Shown here: positions 23,939-34,158 of the stretch, one piece after another
Numbering within the stretch: position 1 is the first letter of the stretch
Layout of the letters: each line of letters opens with the position of its first letter
Made by a program: the position numbers and the translations under genes
The notes under the pieces: model-generated
The model's database searches: none
The model's input: the letters and a program-made list of their open reading frames with translations, nothing else
Told to the model about the DNA's origin: nothing
Origin: a virus
Lineage: Duplodnaviria; Heunggongvirae; Uroviricota; Caudoviricetes
Reading direction: 5' to 3' (one strand)
Length of the DNA: 34,158 nt
IMG/VR virus record: IMGVR_UViG_2660238346_000030

Positions 23939-24663
23939 TGCACTCAACCCCAACTAACCTCATGACCACCGCCAGCCTGCCTGTAGATCGCCCTTTCTTT
24001 GCTTACCAGCATGAATGGAACAGTGGCGCACGCAGCAGAAACCGCGTGCTTACAAAAATGCGTCAGGCTGGCGCGGATTTCTTTTTCGCCTACGAAGCCC
24101 TGAACGATGCACTGCACACCGGACGCAACCAGATTTTTCTGGGCTGCACCCCGGCATCAGCCCTGACCGTCAAAACCTATATATCAGCTTTTTTAAGTGA
24201 GGCAGCAGCCTGGACGCATCTTGGGAAAATAAAATCAGGTAAAGCGCATCTGGAACTCCCAAACGGTGCGGTCATTTATTTTATCGGGCCGGAAAGTCTC
24301 GCCGCCGCGCTCCATGGAAACGTCTACGTGTCAGAGTATGCCTGGGCTGACTCCCCCAAAAATATGATTGCGCTCGCCAAAAGCCTGTCCATGCACGCGC
24401 GCTATCACGCTACCTACTACACCACCCCAAGCCCCAGCCCGGAAGCATGGCAGGAATACAAGAATCTGATCGCCCGCAACAGCACTACCTGCATGACCTT
24501 TACCGCTGATGACGCTGCAGCATCCGGGGCTACGCTCGCAACCGGAGCCGCGCTCTTTGATGATGAATGGCTGAATGACATGAAAAAAGAATTATCACCG
24601 GAGGACTGGAAAATGCTGTTTATGTGCGAATGGCCCCAGGCTGACAAGGAGCAGGCGGCATGA
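23938..24663 (+). CDS. Truncated paralog of the terminase large-subunit ATPase core, translationally coupled between P and Q
   Basis: 241 aa; aligns with the P ATPase core by eye (KMRQAGADFFFAYEALNDALHTGRNQIFL vs KSRQIGATFYFAREALIDALLTGRNQIFL; HGNVYVSEYAW vs HGNLYLDEYFW; LFMCEW vs LLMCEF); start overlaps P stop, stop overlaps Q start. Confidence 0.7.
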   Translation: MHSTPTNLMTTASLPVDRPFFAYQHEWNSGARSRNRVLTKMRQAGADFFFAYEALNDALHTGRNQIFLGCTPASALTVKTYISAFLSEAAAWTHLGKIKSGKAHLELPNGAVIYFIGPESLAAALHGNVYVSEYAWADSPKNMIALAKSLSMHARYHATYYTTPSPSPEAWQEYKNLIARNSTTCMTFTADDAAASGATLATGAALFDDEWLNDMKKELSPEDWKMLFMCEWPQADKEQAA

Positions 24664-25715
24664 GCAAACGTAAAAACAAGAACAACCGCGCAGCGGTGGA
24701 TCACAACGCAGAATCTGGCGGCGCTGCGGCAGAGGCGTTTAGCTTTGGCGACCCGGTGCCGGTGTTAGACCGACGCGAATTGCTGGACTACGTGGAATGC
24801 GTGCAGATGGACCGCTGGTATGAGCCGCCGGTGAGCTTTGACGGACTGGCGCGGACCTATCGCGCCGCCGTGCATCACAGCTCACCGATTGCCGTTAAGC
24901 GTGACATTCTCAGCAGTACCTACATCCCGCACCGCCTGCTCAGCCAGCAGGCTTTTGCCCGTTTCGTACAGGACTATCTGGTGTTCGGTAACGCCTATCT
25001 GGAAAAGCGCACCAACCGGCTCGGCGGCGTTCTCTCACTGGAGCCAGCACTGGCGAAGTACACACGCCGTGGCGTGGACCTCGACACCTACTGGTTTGTG
25101 CAGTATGGCCTGACCACGCAGCCCTATGAATTTACGCAGGGCAACATCTTTCATCTGCTGGAGCCGGATATTAACCAGGAGATTTACGGGCTGCCCGGCT
25201 ATCTCTCCGCCATCCCGTCAACCCTGCTCAACGAGTCCGCAACGCTGTTCCGCCGGAAGTATTACATCAACGGCAGCCATGCGGGTTTCATCATGTACAT
25301 GACCGACGCAGCACAGAATCAGGAGGACGTGAACAATATCCGCCAGGCAATGAAAAGCGCCAAAGGGCCGGGCAACTTCCGTAACCTGTTTATGTACTCA
25401 CCCAACGGTAAAAAGGACGGCATCCAGATCATCCCGTTATCGGAGGTTGCGGCAAAGGATGAGTTTCTGAACATCAAGAACGTGAGCCGCGATGACATGA
25501 TGGCAGCGCACCGCGTACCGCCGCAGATGATGGGCATTATTCCCAACAATACCGGCGGCTTTGGTGATGTGGAAAAGGCCAGCCGCGTCTTTGTCCGCAA
25601 CGAGCTGATGCCGCTGCAGAAGCGACTGCAGGAGCTTAACGACTGGCTTGGAGAAGAAGTGATCCGCTTTGAGCCGTACACGCTGGGACTGACAGAAGAC
25701 AAGCGCAACGACTGA
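24660..25715 (+). CDS. Q: Portal protein gpQ
   Basis: 351 aa, last gene of the packaging operon next to the putative cos region. Confidence 0.88.
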   Translation: MSKRKNKNNRAAVDHNAESGGAAAEAFSFGDPVPVLDRRELLDYVECVQMDRWYEPPVSFDGLARTYRAAVHHSSPIAVKRDILSSTYIPHRLLSQQAFARFVQDYLVFGNAYLEKRTNRLGGVLSLEPALAKYTRRGVDLDTYWFVQYGLTTQPYEFTQGNIFHLLEPDINQEIYGLPGYLSAIPSTLLNESATLFRRKYYINGSHAGFIMYMTDAAQNQEDVNNIRQAMKSAKGPGNFRNLFMYSPNGKKDGIQIIPLSEVAAKDEFLNIKNVSRDDMMAAHRVPPQMMGIIPNNTGGFGDVEKASRVFVRNELMPLQKRLQELNDWLGEEVIRFEPYTLGLTEDKRND

Positions 25716-25750
25716 CCCACCGCACCACGACAACAAGACTACCCCTCACA

Positions 25751-25787
25751 GCGCCCCAGCAGCATTCTGCGGGGCGCTTCTTTTTTT
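25751..25787 (+). terminator. Rho-independent terminator after Q
   Basis: GCGCCCC (25751-25757) / GGGGCGC (25771-25777) stem followed by TTCTTTTTTT. Confidence 0.65.
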
Positions 25788-25869
25788 CTGCCGCTCCCCC
25801 ACCCTCACCAATTGAAGCCGCCAGCGTGCCGGAGATTGCGCCGGATTTTCACCATTTCACCCCGTTGCG

Positions 25870-25888
25870 CGCGCTCGTATCCCCGCTA
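25870..25888. other. Putative cos (cohesive end) site
   Basis: Minus strand reads GGCGTAGCGGGGATACGAG, resembling the 19-nt cohesive ends of P2/186 as I recall them (GGCG.GGCGGGGAAAGCA.); located about 160 bp beyond Q. Confidence 0.3.
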
Positions 25889-25935
25889 CGCCTGCCCGCT
25901 TTATGTAGTGGTTTTCATGCACCTGCATGATCTAC

Positions 25936-25961
25936 GCAAAAGCCCGCCAGTTCTGGCGGGC
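25936..25961 (-). terminator. Putative terminator for the minus-strand SOS operon
   Basis: Stem GCCCGCCAG / CTGGCGGGC with 2-nt loop, followed on the minus strand by TTTTG. Confidence 0.4.
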
Positions 25962-26096
25962 CTTAGCAAAAACGATCCTCAAACGATCATGCGATCTCAT
26001 GCGGCATAGACATGCACTACAGAGCTAACGCCTCGCAAGGGCTCGTTGTTCAACCTTGCTGACGCCAGAAGCAAGTTCAGACGCCAGCAACGTTTC

Positions 26097-26330
26097 TTAA
26101 TGCAGCCAGCTGTCGTCTTCCCACACCTTCTGCATAATTTTCATCACTTGTTTTCTTTCTTCGTCCAGTTGCAGTCCGGTTAGTTCCACACCGTTAGAGC
26201 TACCTTTGCGAATGCGAATTACCGTTTTGGGATACAGGGGGCGCAGATTGCGGTAAAGCTCGGATTCAAGGGCGTCCAGGGTAGACTGGCTAATCTTCTG
26301 CTCTTTATCGATCATTATTTCAATGCGCAT
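26097..26330 (-). CDS. DinI-family protein
   Basis: 78 aa from ATG 26330 with GAGGTGA RBS (ORF track extends to 26402); similar by eye to E. coli DinI (MRIEIMIDK...LDALESEL...KIMQKVWEDDSW); operon preceded by a LexA box. Confidence 0.8.
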   Translation of the reverse strand: MRIEIMIDKEQKISQSTLDALESELYRNLRPLYPKTVIRIRKGSSNGVELTGLQLDEERKQVMKIMQKVWEDDSWLH

Positions 26331-26340
26331 AAAAGTCACC

Positions 26341-26529
26341 TCAGCTGATGACATCCATTGAGCGGTTGTATTCGTGGGTTCTGATTTTTGCCATGAGTTC
26401 ATCAGTCAATTCAGAAACCCACTGCAGAGCCAGCCCCTTCTCTTCATCACTACACTCACTAGCCGCTACAAGCTTAAGAAAAAAATCAATGCGCTGGAGC
26501 TTCAAAGACTCCAAAAAATAGTCCTGCAT
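26341..26529 (-). CDS. Small SOS-inducible protein, candidate antirepressor (Tum/GfoA-like by position)
   Basis: 62 aa from ATG 26529 with AGGAGG RBS (ORF track extends to 26631); first gene of the LexA-boxed operon, 10 nt upstream of the dinI-like gene. Confidence 0.5.
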   Translation of the reverse strand: MQDYFLESLKLQRIDFFLKLVAASECSDEEKGLALQWVSELTDELMAKIRTHEYNRSMDVIS

Positions 26530-26570
26530 CTTTCCTCCTATGACACCACACGCAATACTATATGTATAAC

Positions 26571-26590
26571 CACTGTTTATATTTACAGTA
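26571..26590 (-). promoter_or_regulatory. LexA box (SOS operator) overlapping the promoter of the small-ORF/dinI-like operon
   Basis: CACTGTTTATATTTACAGTA, i.e. CTGT-N8-ACAG with AT-rich spacer, 40-60 bp upstream of the start codon at 26529. Confidence 0.78.
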
Positions 26591-26682
26591 TATAATAATC
26601 TTACTGATGTAAAACGTTTTTTTACGTTCATCAGCCTGATATGCCTGGTATTATTAATAGCACGAATTGTTAACCCGCGTAA

Positions 26683-29097
26683 TTAATACAGGTTCCGCCA
26701 CTGATCATCTTCCTGCAAACGCTGGTTCCGATAGAAGATACGCAGGCCTGCTCCTGACGGAATACTGCCGCCGCGAAGGAGCAAATTGACCTCTTTCTCG
26801 CTGCCATCAAATCCTCTGGACTTCAGTTCATAGACGAGCTGCTGACGCTGATACTCTGTAATTCGCTGTTTGTAGTCTTTACGCCGTTTCGGTTTAACCA
26901 GGCGTAATCTTGCTGCCAGTTCCCGGCGCTCTTTTTTGCTCATACTGTGCAGGTAATCGTGCAACTCCTTGTCATCCATGCGGGTGATATCCGTTCTGGT
27001 ATCCCCATCAGCTGATTTGTCTTTCCCTTGTTGGTTCAAATTTTCAGCAAGGGGACAGTTATTGCCACGAGTCCAAGGGGCGCAAGCGCCCTGGTCGGCT
27101 GCCGCCTCCTGAACGTCAACGGCCTTACGAACCATTTTCCACTTCACTGCATGAGTGCAGATCTTACCCTCTGCAATGGGTGACCAGATGCCATAAATAC
27201 GAATGCCGTGATCGCCATAGGCGGTCGGCTCTTCGTTGATTTCATAAGCGGTTCTGATGAGGTGATATTTACGGGGAACCAGTACGCCGCCCTGCTTCAT
27301 GATGTAGGTGGCAAAACAACCAGCATCAGCTGCAGCCAGAATGGCATCAAGGCGCGGGTTATCCAGTACCGGCGCACCTGCTTTTTTGTCACCCTGTTGC
27401 CTTGCCGCCTGACCAGCCAGCAATCGCAGTTCACGGTAAGCCTGACGCCCCGGAATGCCAAAGAAGCGGAATTGCTGAACACGATGCAGAGACGCCCAGG
27501 CATTAACGTATTCAGCGTTATCACGCAGAGATTTACCCGTTTCCTTGCTGATCTCGCCAGCCAGACCACGCCCGTCAATGTTCTTACTGATGTATTTCGC
27601 GATGTAGCTAGTCGGCGTTCCTTTGCGCGGGTTTATCAGCTCAGACTTAAAGCGTGGCCCCGTGTTATTACCCAGCTCCTCGCGGTCTTCACGGATAGCA
27701 AACTTACGCAACAATGCAGTAATGGCGCGGCGGTCTTTTTTGCGCATGAAACACAACAGGTGCCAGTGAACTGTGCCGTCATGATGCGGCTCAGCCACCC
27801 GCACGCCATACCAGCGCAATCCGGCTTTGTGCATCGCCTTACGAAATGCAGCAAACATGCCGACCAGATAATCACTGCTTTGTCTTACCGTCGCATTTGT
27901 CCAGGTCGGGTTGGGCCTGCCGTTATTTAGCGTGGAATGGAAACGTGACGGACAGGTGATGGTGTAGAAAACGGCGCAGTCACCGCGCATTTCCGCGATA
28001 AGCTCCAGACCTTTAACACAGGCCATCATCTCATTGCGGCGATGCGCAGGGTTGCTGCTGCTGGCGTTTACCACATCCTCCATGTCCAGCGTGTCGCCGT
28101 CTTCGTTCACCAGTTCATGAGAACGGAAAAACTCCAGCGACTTACGGCGCTGCTCACGTTTATGCATCACGGCTTCATAGCTGACATAGGGAGATGCTTT
28201 TTTGCTGACCAGGCAAACAGCACGCAACTGCTCTTCCCGCCATTCACAACGCATCTTCCACAATTTCCGATACCACCAGTCGGCGCACAACATACGCGCC
28301 AGCGAACCCGGAATGAGTTCATAGGGTACGGGTTTACGGCGGTTTCTTTTCCGGCGGAGTTGCTCAAACGCAGGCGGTATGACATCCAGTCGCAGGGTTT
28401 CTGCTGCCACCTTTTCCCATGTCTTGCGGATTTCTTCTGGCTTAACATCATCGGTGGCATACAAATCACCACAAGCGGCATCAAGACACATACTCATATG
28501 CGCAGCGACAAGAGTAGACAGGCGTTTCACCTGATCCTGACTCATTTCAGGCAAGATCAGCAGGCCGTCCAGCCCTTCATGGCTTGCCATAAAGCGAAAA
28601 GAAGTGGATAGCTGACTGTCGCGTACATGCTCCAGTCGTTCCAGACATGGCTTAATCGTCTCACGCAAATAGCGGGAATAAGCCTTTGGCCTGCCCAGGC
28701 TGCTGAAGTATTCAATACGTTGCATCAGCGGCTTGCTGATATGGGAAGGCTGGGCGTTAACGTCCGCCAGTATGACCATGTCCGGATTAAAACGCTGCTG
28801 CTCATGCGCCAGCTTTGCCCGGCTAATGAGCTTATCCTGCTCCATTTCGCGCTGGACAGGATCACGGGATGCATTAAAGAAATAACGCTCCCAGACCTGA
28901 TCACTCAGTGCCTCGCGGCGCAGTTGTTCCTGCTCGTTATCGGCAGCGTACAGAGTGATCAGGTTTGAAAGCGCAGAAACCGGCGCAACTTCCGCCGGGT
29001 CCAGATAAGGGTTAATAGCCTTTTTCGGGCTGTTCCATGAGAATGCTGCGGCGGCCTCGTTAAAGCCGCTGCAGTTGTTCATATCAGCATGGCTCAT
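26683..29097 (-). CDS. A: Replication initiation endonuclease gpA (rolling-circle initiator)
   Basis: 804 aa, last and largest gene of the early operon, P2/186 A-like. Confidence 0.88.
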
Positions 29098-32161: not shown

Positions 32162-32731
32162 GTGGATTTCAATAGCGGCGGTAAGAAAGCCATAGAACGT
32201 TTAGTTGAAGCATATGGGTTCGGTACCCGTCAGGCTCTCTGTGATCATTTAGGTGTTTCTAAGAGCACCATGGCAACGCGCTATATGCGTGATATTTTTC
32301 CAGCAGATTGGGTAATCCAGTGCGCCCTTGAAACGGGCACCTCGCTTAATTGGCTAACAACAGGGCATGGTTCAAAGCAAGCATCAGCAAATACAAATAC
32401 TATAGAAGTAGAAAAATATTTATTGTCTGATGGAGCATTGCAGAAAGACGGTTTTTATATTTTTGATAAGGGATTTCTACCCTCTGCGTTTAAAAAACCT
32501 TTTGTCATCACAGATAACAATTCTGAATTTATTTGTGATAAAGAATTTGATGATATACGTGATGGTAAATGGGTAATAAGTATTGATGGCGAAATAACGA
32601 TCCGTGACATTACTCGTTTACCCGGTGGAAGAATCTTCGTCGAGGGTGGAAACAGAGCCTTCGAATGCAAGATAGAAGACATTGAAATAATTGGTAAAAT
32701 TATAAGTTTAACAGTCAAGTATGTTAAATAG
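32162..32731 (+). CDS. cI: 186-type CI immunity repressor
   Basis: N-terminal HTH domain (LGVSKSTMATRYMRDIFPADWVIQCALETGTSLNWLTTGHG) plus C-terminal domain; start set at GTG 32162 preceded by GGAGG (ORF track starts at GTG 32075). Confidence 0.75.
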   Translation: MDFNSGGKKAIERLVEAYGFGTRQALCDHLGVSKSTMATRYMRDIFPADWVIQCALETGTSLNWLTTGHGSKQASANTNTIEVEKYLLSDGALQKDGFYIFDKGFLPSAFKKPFVITDNNSEFICDKEFDDIRDGKWVISIDGEITIRDITRLPGGRIFVEGGNRAFECKIEDIEIIGKIISLTVKYVK

Positions 32732-32746
32732 TACCGGGAGGAAACT

Positions 32747-32938
32747 ATGCTTGGTAAGGTATTTTTTGTGGTTTTGTCATGTTCTTTGTTATTAAACCCA
32801 CTAACTACCTATGCTAGAAATTATCCCTGCTCAGGGAAAAAGGGAGGTGTTTCTCACTGTACCTCAGATGGCAAATTCGTTTGCAATGATGGAACTATTA
32901 GTAAATCCAAAAAAATCTGTACTAAAAACTCACGATAA
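32747..32938 (+). CDS. Small secreted Cys-rich basic peptide, cotranscribed with cI and int (lysogeny-expressed moron candidate)
   Basis: 63 aa; GGGAGG RBS 6 nt upstream; Sec-type signal peptide [23 protein letters not shown] followed by a 40-aa Lys-rich mature part with four Cys. Confidence 0.55.
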
Positions 32939-33126
32939 CTTTTGCTTTTATATCTGCGTCTAAAATAAAAATGAGCCGCAGGTTAACCGCAAAAGTTACA
33001 TGCTCACATAGCAAAAAGAATAGCCAACTTCATTATGGCTTCAGTGAGATGTATGGTCGTAGGATTTCATACATTGACACTGGTTATACATACAGTAAAA
33101 ATGCTCTCTACTGGAGGGCATTTTTT

Positions 33127-34158
33127 ATGGCAGTACGAAAACTCACCACAGGGAAATGGCTTTGCGAATGTTACCCCGCCGGACGTAGTGGGCGTCGTGT
33201 GCGTAAACAATTCGCCACCAAAGGCGAAGCTCTGGCTTTTGAGCGCCACACGATGGAAGAAACCGAAGCAAAGCCCTGGCTGGGTGAATCAGTGGATCGT
33301 CGAACACTGAAAGACGTAGTTGAGCTATGGTTCAAACTACATGGTAAATCTCTAACCGCTGGGCAGCATGTCTATGACAAATTGCTGTTGATGGTTGACG
33401 CTCTGGGCAATCCCCTTGCAACCGATCTCACATCTAAAATGTTTGCCCACTATCGAGATAAACGCCTGACGGGTGAGATCTACTTCAGCGAGAAATGGAA
33501 AAAAGGAGCAAGCCCAGTCACTATTAACCTGGAGCAAAGCTATCTTAGTAGTGTTTTTAGCGAACTATCCCGCCTGGGCGAATGGTCGTATCCGAACCCA
33601 CTGGAGAACATGCGAAAATTCACCATCGCAGAAAAAGAGATGGCATGGCTTACCCATGAACAGATTGTTGAATTGCTGGCTGATTGTAAACGTCAGGACC
33701 CAATTCTGGCACTGGTAGTTAAGATATGCTTAAGCACTGGCGCACGCTGGCGTGAAGCCGTAAATCTTACCCGCTCACAGGTGACCAAATACCGAATTAC
33801 CTTTGTAAGAACGAAGGGGAAGAAAAACAGAAGCATCCCTATCAGTAAAGAGCTTTACGAAGAGATCATGGCGCTTGATGGGTTCAATTTCTTCACAGAC
33901 TGCTATTTTCAATTTTTATCCGTGATGGAAAAAACGTCTATCGTGCTCCCTCGCGGTCAACTGACACACGTTCTGCGCCATACGTTTGCGGCGCATTTTA
34001 TGATGTCGGGTGGAAATATCCTTGCTTTGCAAAAAATCCTCGGACATCACGACATAAAAATGACTATGCGTTACGCACATCTGGCACCGGATCACCTGGA
34101 AACTGCATTACGGTTTAATCCGCTGGCAACACTACCAACATCAATAGCAAGTTTTTGA
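33127..34158 (+). CDS. int: Tyrosine integrase (P2/186 Int family)
   Basis: Start at ATG 33127 with GGAGGG RBS (ORF track extends to 32971); C-terminal catalytic motifs (TGARWREA, HVLRHTFA, MRYAHL with catalytic Tyr); stop codon is the last 3 nt of the window. Confidence 0.9.
   Translation: MAVRKLTTGKWLCECYPAGRSGRRVRKQFATKGEALAFERHTMEETEAKPWLGESVDRRTLKDVVELWFKLHGKSLTAGQHVYDKLLLMVDALGNPLATDLTSKMFAHYRDKRLTGEIYFSEKWKKGASPVTINLEQSYLSSVFSELSRLGEWSYPNPLENMRKFTIAEKEMAWLTHEQIVELLADCKRQDPILALVVKICLSTGARWREAVNLTRSQVTKYRITFVRTKGKKNRSIPISKELYEEIMALDGFNFFTDCYFQFLSVMEKTSIVLPRGQLTHVLRHTFAAHFMMSGGNILALQKILGHHDIKMTMRYAHLAPDHLETALRFNPLATLPTSIASF

Follow-up and report, generated by a model that had tools for sequence, protein, structure and literature searches.

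The two small genes that lie behind a LexA box next to replication gene A are very probably the SOS operon tumA-tumB ('split tum') of a P2-like prophage of the Fels-2/DuoHS type, with a LexA-controlled antirepressor that would release the prophage from its immunity repressor CI after DNA damage. The stretch had been described in an earlier note as a LexA-boxed pair of genes, a candidate antirepressor and a DinI-like protein, at the position occupied by tum in phage 186, and that description stands. The observation is correct yet ordinary, being that of the well-known, already described DNA-damage switch of 186/Fels-2-type P2-like prophages.

The window, by which we mean the whole 34,158-nt stretch of DNA analysed, is an integrated P2-like prophage of the 186/Fels-2 type, with an integrase (32971-34158), a 186-type CI (32162-32731), apl, cII, gene A and the portal gene Q. 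It is around 96-97% identical to the DuoHS prophage of Escherichia coli HS and shares its chromosomal insertion site. The SOS module is flanked by gene A (26683-29097, minus strand, 804 aa) on one side and by cos and the portal gene Q (24660-25715, plus strand) on the other. The AT-rich intergenic region following gene A on the minus strand contains TTTACA, a 17-nt spacer and the LexA box. The features on which the argument depends are as follows.

26608..26613, minus strand: -35 hexamer TTTACA of a p95-like SOS promoter, located by sequence, 17 nt upstream of TACTGT
26590..26585, minus strand: putative -10 hexamer TACTGT, coinciding with the first six bases of the LexA box
26571..26590, minus strand: LexA box TACTGTAAATATAAACAGTG, the sole match in the window and conserved upstream of TumA
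26534..26539, minus strand: Shine-Dalgarno sequence AGGAGG of tumA, 4 nt before the ATG; AGGAGG or GGAGGG is kept in most relatives
26341..26529, minus strand, stop included: tumA, encoding a 62-aa acidic, predicted helical-hairpin antirepressor, assigned by phrog_698 and by profile homology to the N-terminal half of 186 Tum
26097..26330, minus strand, stop included: tumB, encoding a 77-aa DinI-family protein, assigned by PF06183 and by identity to Fels-2 and HS proteins
25939..25964, minus strand: G+C-rich hairpin with UUUU after it, a candidate terminator for the SOS transcript within the conserved region near cos, assigned by folding and by alignment by eye
25874..25892, minus strand: probable cohesive-end (cos) sequence GGCGTAGCGGGGATACGAG, the right end of the phage chromosome after the operon, placed by the end of the PSP3 record
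32162..32731, plus strand: cI, 186-type immunity repressor and presumed target of TumA, assigned by PF07022 and PF16452, by a match to structure 2FJR and by identity to DuoHS CI at 165 of 189 residues

The LexA box reads CACTGTTTATATTTACAGTA on the plus strand (26571-26590) and TACTGTAAATATAAACAGTG on the minus strand. Its description in the earlier note as near-consensus is borne out: CACTGTTTATATTTACAGTA is the single site within three mismatches of TACTGTATATATATACAGTA in the 34-kb window, no match arose in 100 shuffles, and the box is also the window's sole instance of CTGT-N8-ACAG. From its end to the ATG at 26529 there are 41 nt. The box is conserved beyond this prophage. CTG-N10-CAG lies 38-95 nt upstream of the TumA ATG in 31 of 33 loci from many enterobacterial genera, with divergent flanks, and the two loci that lack it are a truncated contig and a degenerate copy.

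The promoter was assigned by comparison with p95 of phage 186, a consensus promoter scan having listed no sigma-70 site here. The 186 record annotates p95 as TTCACA, 18 nt and TACTGT, with a LexA site starting at the -10, and a TTTACA-like hexamer is found at comparable spacing upstream of most TumA homologues in the 33 genome loci. The exact -10 in the window is a matter of this comparison, and TACTGT, which agrees with the consensus at only three of six positions, is its likely counterpart. A LexA box over the putative -10, a p95-like layout and cos directly downstream are together the arrangement of the Tum/TumA antirepressors of 186-like Peduoviridae.

Behind this promoter tumA runs from the ATG at 26529 to a TGA at 26343..26341, preceded by AGGAGG at 26539..26534, as had been claimed for the 62-aa ORF. 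It is a real gene under purifying selection. Among 33 distinct homologous DNA sequences the variable sites number 25, 14 and 50 at codon positions 1, 2 and 3, respectively, and codon differences are synonymous in 519 cases and non-synonymous in 252. Two plus-strand ORFs antisense to tumA (26348-26521 and 26374-26595) are unsupported, the codon-position pattern fitting the minus-strand frame.

The choice of start codon deserves comment, as the ORF listing gives 26341..26631 as a single ORF of 96 aa and many database entries for TumA are 84-106 aa long. That the real product begins at 26631 is, however, scarcely credible. The ATG there precedes both the LexA box and the -35 hexamer and lacks a ribosome-binding site; the in-frame upstream ATG is absent in 23 of 33 relatives, several of which have a stop 2-9 codons upstream; and conservation of TumA begins at MQDY. 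The 62-aa form is, moreover, the one used in the RefSeq, Fels-2 and HS annotations. A start ahead of the promoter that relatives do not conserve leaves the 62-aa reading as the correct one.

The suggestion that the 62-aa protein belongs to no recognised family and might be a new antirepressor variant does not survive comparison with phage protein families. Pfam and NCBIfam searches of the ORF return no family, but it matches phrog_698 with an E-value of 3.6e-38, as well as phrog_8554 (2.4e-8) and phrog_1993 (2.2e-3), and it is identical at 61 of 62 residues both to STM2728 of Fels-2 and to ECHS_RS04495 of E. coli HS. In all, 482 database clusters of TumA were found. The comparison with 186 Tum that the earlier note proposed indicates a remote relationship. 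The N-terminal 70 residues of 186 Tum match the same three families, phrog_698 with an E-value of 5.9e-6, and hhalign of a profile of 27 TumA sequences against a profile of 50 N-terminal halves of 186-type Tum gives an E-value of 6.6e-5 and a probability of 64%, with an alignment in register (residues 1-43 to 1-43). Pairwise BLASTP of TumA against 186 Tum and against PSP3 TumA detects no similarity. The profile statistics are modest but consistent, and they point to remote homology between TumA and the N-terminal half of 186 Tum. TumA is acidic (pI 4.6), as are the N-terminal part of 186 Tum and PSP3 TumA. Its AF2 model is a two-helix hairpin (pLDDT 89), for which a Foldseek search of the PDB gives only generic helical-hairpin matches, all with E-values of at least 1.

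The second gene, tumB, starts with an ATG at 26330, 10 nt after the tumA stop, and its ribosome-binding site GAGGTG overlaps the tumA stop codon. The earlier note was right about the spacing, the separate ribosome-binding site and the DinI family, although the gene encodes 77 aa and not 78. The match to Pfam DinI (PF06183) covers positions 1-63 of the 63 in the profile, with an E-value of 6.6e-23 and 81.3 bits against a gathering cut-off of 24.2, and the E. coli DinI structure 1GHH is matched with an E-value of 2.7e-6. TumB is 100% (77/77) identical to STM2726.1 of Fels-2 and ECHS_RS04500 of HS; its identity is 78% with PSP3 TumB and 41% with residues 71-145 of 186 Tum. With the NCBIfam equivalog for chromosomal DinI it scores 42.7 bits, below the cut-off of 111 bits, and TumB therefore belongs to a paralogous phage subfamily. 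A DinI-like gene directly following TumA is facultative in the wider family: in around 12 of 33 related loci the LexA box and TumA persist with no DinI gene at all, which suggests that TumB is dispensable in evolutionary terms.

A 186-type CI was expected as the target of an antirepressor of this kind, and the window encodes one. Its product matches PF07022 and PF16452, with the S24 peptidase family below threshold, and matches the 186 CI structure 2FJR with an E-value of 1.5e-31. The cognate repressor is thus of the 186 type, with a helix-turn-helix N-terminal domain and an oligomerising C-terminal domain, and not of the self-cleaving S24 type.

These components suggest the following sequence of events. 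In the lysogen, host LexA would occupy the box overlapping the -10 of the p95-like promoter and keep the operon silent. DNA damage would activate RecA, LexA would cleave itself and the promoter would fire. TumA would then bind the 186-type CI, which RecA is not expected to cleave, and keep it off its operators, so that the early lytic promoter pR would be derepressed and the prophage induced. TumB, co-expressed, most likely modulates the activity of the RecA filament, and hence the strength or duration of the SOS response, rather than acting on CI, a role proposed for it from its family membership alone. Transcription would end at the hairpin shortly before cos.

Genetic support for the central steps comes from DuoHS of E. 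coli HS, in which the 62-aa gene ECHS_RS04495 immediately precedes the DinI-like gene. Its TumA (ECHS_RS04495) is 61/62 identical to that of the window, with the single difference T51S, and its TumB (ECHS_RS04500) is 77/77 identical; gene order is the same, with no difference in the -35 hexamer, spacer or LexA box. A LexA-like half-site downstream reads ACAGT in HS, where it is intact, and ATAGT in the window, where it is degraded. In-frame deletion of ECHS_RS04495 ('tum') abolishes mitomycin C (MMC)-induced lysis and virion formation of DuoHS (PMC12055606, the Phollow paper). A lexA(Ind-) allele likewise abolishes MMC induction of DuoHS, an effect that is not promoter-specific since the whole SOS response is blocked (PMC12055606). 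The literature has thus shown that tum and cleavable LexA are required for induction, for a 61/62-identical orthologue in E. coli HS. These results mean that the checks called for by the earlier note, on LexA-dependent control and on induction through the 62-aa ORF, have essentially been done on a near-identical element.

The same deletion bears on which of the two genes is the inducer. In 186 a single polypeptide contains both halves, and the annotation credits shorter products that contain DinI with modulation of SOS induction, and TumB is co-transcribed from only 10 nt downstream of the TumA ORF, so one might picture the DinI-like protein as the inducer or joint inducer and the 62-aa ORF as an accessory or leader peptide. 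We consider this very unlikely, given that deleting the 62-aa gene alone, in frame, suffices to abolish induction of DuoHS (PMC12055606) and that antirepressor activity resides in the upstream gene of PSP3 (PMC3121763). The roughly 12 of 33 related loci with LexA box and TumA but no DinI gene are equally hard to reconcile with an inducing TumB, and in Gifsy induction dinI deletions are without significant effect (PMC3121763). TumA remains the preferred antirepressor.

Direct binding of TumA to CI in this particular phage is a separate matter. DuoHS CI and the window CI disagree at 24 of 189 residues, most of which belong to the N-terminal part, so that we infer, rather than carry over from DuoHS, the compatibility of TumA and CI here. 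One could imagine a mismatched module, in which a recombinant CI has acquired a new N-terminal part that TumA fails to recognise, leaving a prophage that is not SOS-inducible. The N-terminal concentration of the differences between two proteins otherwise identical at 165 of 189 residues would fit such an event, as would the lack in the phage collection of any CI more than 58% identical to that of the window, and the type of Tum does follow the clade of the CI N-terminal domain. Nevertheless, many loci pair TumA sequences at least 95% identical with CIs only 35-71% identical; the N-terminal domain of the window CI falls in the same clade as those of all other partners of TumA of the phrog_698 type (TumA-698), which are 58-100% identical; and the CI and TumA pair of the window recurs at 99-100% in Escherichia sp. 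MOD1-EC7003. A mismatch is accordingly improbable, and a functional TumA-CI pair is the reading we retain.

Phage 186 itself resembles the window in the placing of the LexA box over a -10 TACTGT, in the position of the operon after gene A near cos and in the 186-type CI as target. It differs in that its Tum is one 146-aa polypeptide, split into TumA and TumB in the window, in having orf97 downstream, which the window does not, and in that 186-type Tum pairs with a CI N-terminal-domain clade other than the window's. The 186 record says of tum 'expression repressed by LexA; inhibits CI DNA binding' and has entries for shorter products with the DinI part that 'modulate SOS induction'. Once p95 has been freed from LexA, 186 Tum inhibits or sequesters CI (PMC7708051) and, in the account of Shearwin 1998 as relayed in PMC3121763 and PMC7708051, it binds CI and prevents operator binding. 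Its resemblance to an antirepressor fused to DinI was pointed out by Lemire et al. 2011 (PMC3121763).

The split form has precedents. According to PMC3121763, which cites Bunny et al. 2002, a stop codon divides tum into two in Fels-2 and PSP3, and the upstream gene of the split tum of PSP3 is described as the antirepressor (PMC3121763). PSP3 shares the split architecture, position and LexA box of the window, and its record annotates tumA as 'similar to 5' end 186 tum; UV induction of prophage' and tumB as 'similar to dinI and 3' end of 186 tum'. Its TumB is 78% identical to that of the window, but its TumA is only a remote relative, with no BLASTP similarity, and its CI, of 286 aa, has a duplicated N-terminal domain. 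Fels-2 of Salmonella LT2 is much closer in the operon itself: STM2728 is 61/62 identical to TumA, STM2726.1 is 100% identical to TumB, and the position after gene A is the same. However, the Fels-2 CI is of a different immunity type. A BLASTP search of the locus set with Fels-2 CI does not place the window CI among its best eight matches, and RE2010, a Fels-2-like phage, has a CI with 43% identity to that of the window. Fels-2 also has an extra gene of 243 aa, STM2726, after tumB; it is unrelated to 186 orf97.

The likeness to the Gifsy phages drawn in the earlier note holds for function, but not for gene order. Gifsy-1, -2 and -3 (GfoA/GftA) likewise have a LexA-repressed operon with a small antirepressor and a DinI homologue, the repressor being inactivated by binding and not by cleavage (PMC3121763). 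The order there is reversed, with LexA box, dinI, antirepressor and then irsA, whereas the antirepressor comes first in the window, so that the dinI-antirepressor order of the Gifsy type is not found here. The Gifsy phages are also lambdoid, with unrelated repressors.

Downstream of tumB the earlier note had placed a candidate terminator, and the fold supports it: the 76-nt stretch containing the hairpin at 25964..25939 folds at -33 kcal/mol (z -4.2), and the hairpin is followed by UUUU. A consensus terminator scan did not list this hairpin, and the exact terminator assigned here is the one suggested by folding. By eye, it can be aligned with a hairpin close to the right end of both the 186 and the PSP3 genome. 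Another hairpin right after tumB (26091..26053) was considered as an equivalent of t95a, but is weak (z -1.9) and has no U-tract. An Rfam search of 25600-26800 gave nothing relevant. The final 13 nt of the linear PSP3 record match 25905..25893 on the minus strand, which places the start of cos about 45 nt past the hairpin. The cohesive end at 25874..25892 we take to be 19 nt long, as in P2-like phages. A presumed 186 cos sequence had no match in the window, and cos was placed via the PSP3 record end.

Between tumB and Q lies a variable stretch, and this, not the module, is the counterpart of the old/tin accessory slot of P2. The distance from tumA to the portal gene is 0.63 kb in the window and reaches about 4.8 kb at most in relatives. 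Different genes occupy the slot in Fels-2, DuoHS and phage 813R9, two additional ones separating tumB from the portal gene in DuoHS, and the window has none; 186 orf97 and Fels-2 STM2726, which are unrelated to each other, have no homologue in it. tumA, on the other hand, is at the same place in all loci, unlike variable cargo of the old/tin type of P2. The module therefore adjoins the variable cargo slot as a conserved, syntenic unit and is not cargo, and its assignment to an old/tin slot has to be dropped.

The AT-richness noticed earlier is real, with a G+C content of 0.39-0.47 over 26100-26850 compared with 0.51-0.60 on both sides, and is largely that of the AT-rich promoter and LexA region plus two small genes. 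The independent acquisition that had been read into it finds no such backing, for the divergence of TumA resembles that of gene A: TumA is 71-92% identical across genera, and for gene A the figure in most loci is 73-88%. A few loci pair TumA with a very different A (33-37%), and some modular exchange thus occurs.

A further set of observations concerns TumA and the immunity type of CI. Across 351 locus pairs, which include those with near-identical TumA and dissimilar CI mentioned above, the medians of identity are 82% (TumA) and 42% (CI), with a rank correlation of -0.05. Within CI the N-terminal domain has a median identity of 63%, compared with 32% for the C-terminal domain. The fused form of 146 aa is encoded by 78 of 80 IMG/VR loci with 186-type Tum. 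Tum type follows the CI N-terminal-domain clade in 94 of 96 loci, a window-like N-terminal domain being found in 27 of 28 TumA-698 loci and a 186-like one in 67 of 68 with fused Tum. The exceptions are L026 (Pantoea stewartii), which combines a Fels-2-type TumA with a CI 60% identical to 186 CI, and L087. This decoupling of TumA from CI, with Tum type tracking the N-terminal-domain clade, may be new. Trans-induction across immunity types has been shown for Gifsy phages, and the decoupling raises the question of whether co-resident P2-like prophages cross-induce each other. It is conceivable, though on balance doubtful, that TumA of the Fels-2/DuoHS type is a broad-specificity antirepressor acting on a conserved surface of the CI N-terminal (DNA-binding) domain and not on residues specific to one immunity, which would allow it to induce co-resident P2-like prophages of different immunity in trans. 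The presence of up to four copies of the module in some E. coli genomes was counted toward this broad-specificity reading. Equally, shared phage lineage could produce the same association between Tum and CI clades with no binding specificity involved. To our knowledge, cross-induction in trans by TumA has never been tested in Peduoviridae.

The 801-bp module is present in 1144 of 5426 complete E. coli genomes, with up to four copies per genome, and in 56 phage records. One scan of species-representative genomes gave 33 loci, among them Escherichia, Citrobacter, Klebsiella, Enterobacter, Serratia, Pantoea, Erwinia, Tatumella and others. As a discovery the module is thus of low value, being a standard SOS switch carried by about one-fifth of complete E. 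coli genomes and genetically verified in a near-identical prophage. Its practical value lies in annotation, as a phrog_698 protein behind a LexA box can be named TumA, which would allow SOS-inducible and non-inducible P2-like prophages to be told apart by sequence. Current labels give little hint of this. PGAP labels among the E. coli matches listed are 'DinI-like family protein', 'hypothetical protein' and 'replication endonuclease'. The Fels-2 and E. coli HS records call TumA a 'hypothetical protein' or, mistakenly, a 'levan regulatory protein', and one or other of these two names is carried by all named entries among the 120 protein clusters listed. Gene callers, in addition, often extend TumA upstream across its own promoter.

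The repressor and its neighbour towards the integrase gene occupy the following positions:

32162-32731, + strand, cI, the 186-type repressor gene
32747-32938, + strand, 63-aa Cys-rich ORF between cI and int

Compared with CI of DuoHS, the near-identical prophage of Escherichia coli HS, the window protein is identical at 165 of 189 positions overall. The C-terminal 115 or so residues are the same in both, the differences falling in the N-terminal part, and on this comparison the window CI looks recombinant. The same pairing of CI with the antirepressor TumA is present, at 99%, in Escherichia sp. MOD1-EC7003 (L005). Within the phage collection no CI is more than 58% identical to that of the window, which probably represents a distinct immunity type. 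The 63-aa ORF has a hydrophobic, signal-like N-terminus and no match in Pfam, and its E. coli HS counterpart, ECHS_RS23290, is likewise annotated as hypothetical; it may be an accessory gene expressed in lysogeny.

Tum type generally goes with CI clade, but two of the related loci are exceptions. In L026 (Pantoea stewartii ATCC 8199), CI is 60% identical to 186 CI, yet TumA, the antirepressor, is of the Fels-2 type; the IMG/VR locus L087 has a non-186 CI alongside a fused 186-type Tum. The DinI-like partner is facultative, since in around 12 of the 33 TumA loci from the genome scan no such gene is seen downstream while the LexA box and TumA are retained (the loci listed as lacking it are L010, L014, L020, L024, L028-L035 and L037).

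Upstream of the antirepressor gene there is a second LexA-like element:

26552-26568, - strand, second LexA-like half-site, 2 nt past the main LexA box, compared with the same position in L005-L037

It reads GGATATATATACAGT in most relatives and is kept in most of the L005-L037 loci, being intact in E. coli HS and L005, but the window carries a degraded version, ...CATATAGT. Phages 186 and PSP3 have one LexA box each. Many public gene calls (database proteins P0001, P0005, P0007 and others) lengthen the antirepressor to 84-106 aa and so run over its own promoter and LexA box (window 26530-26631, - strand). The extended form was rejected because the upstream extension is not conserved. Some sources name the antirepressor 'levan regulatory protein'.

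Two features lie on the other side of the operon:

25716-26096, variable cargo slot between tumB, the DinI-like gene, and portal gene Q
25874-25905, - strand, putative cohesive-end region, placed from the end of the PSP3 record

Comparison with L005-L037, L002, L003 and L121 shows the stretch between tumB and Q to be a variable cargo slot. It is geneless in the window, where tumA and the portal gene are 0.63 kb apart, against as much as about 4.8 kb in relatives. Elsewhere the slot is filled in different ways: by two hypothetical genes in DuoHS, by a Ymh-domain gene in phage 813R9, and in Fels-2 by a gene for 243 aa that has no relation to 186 orf97. The linear PSP3 genome ends in 13 nt that match positions 25905..25893 (- strand), which places the putative cohesive end (GGCGTAGCGGGGATACGAG) immediately past the hairpin of the SOS operon. 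Alignment to E. coli HS shows that window positions 1 to about 2600 belong to the host chromosome, flanking the prophage on its grxA/ybjM/ybjL side, and that the window end (34158) coincides with the end of the integrase gene; the insertion site is common to this prophage and DuoHS.
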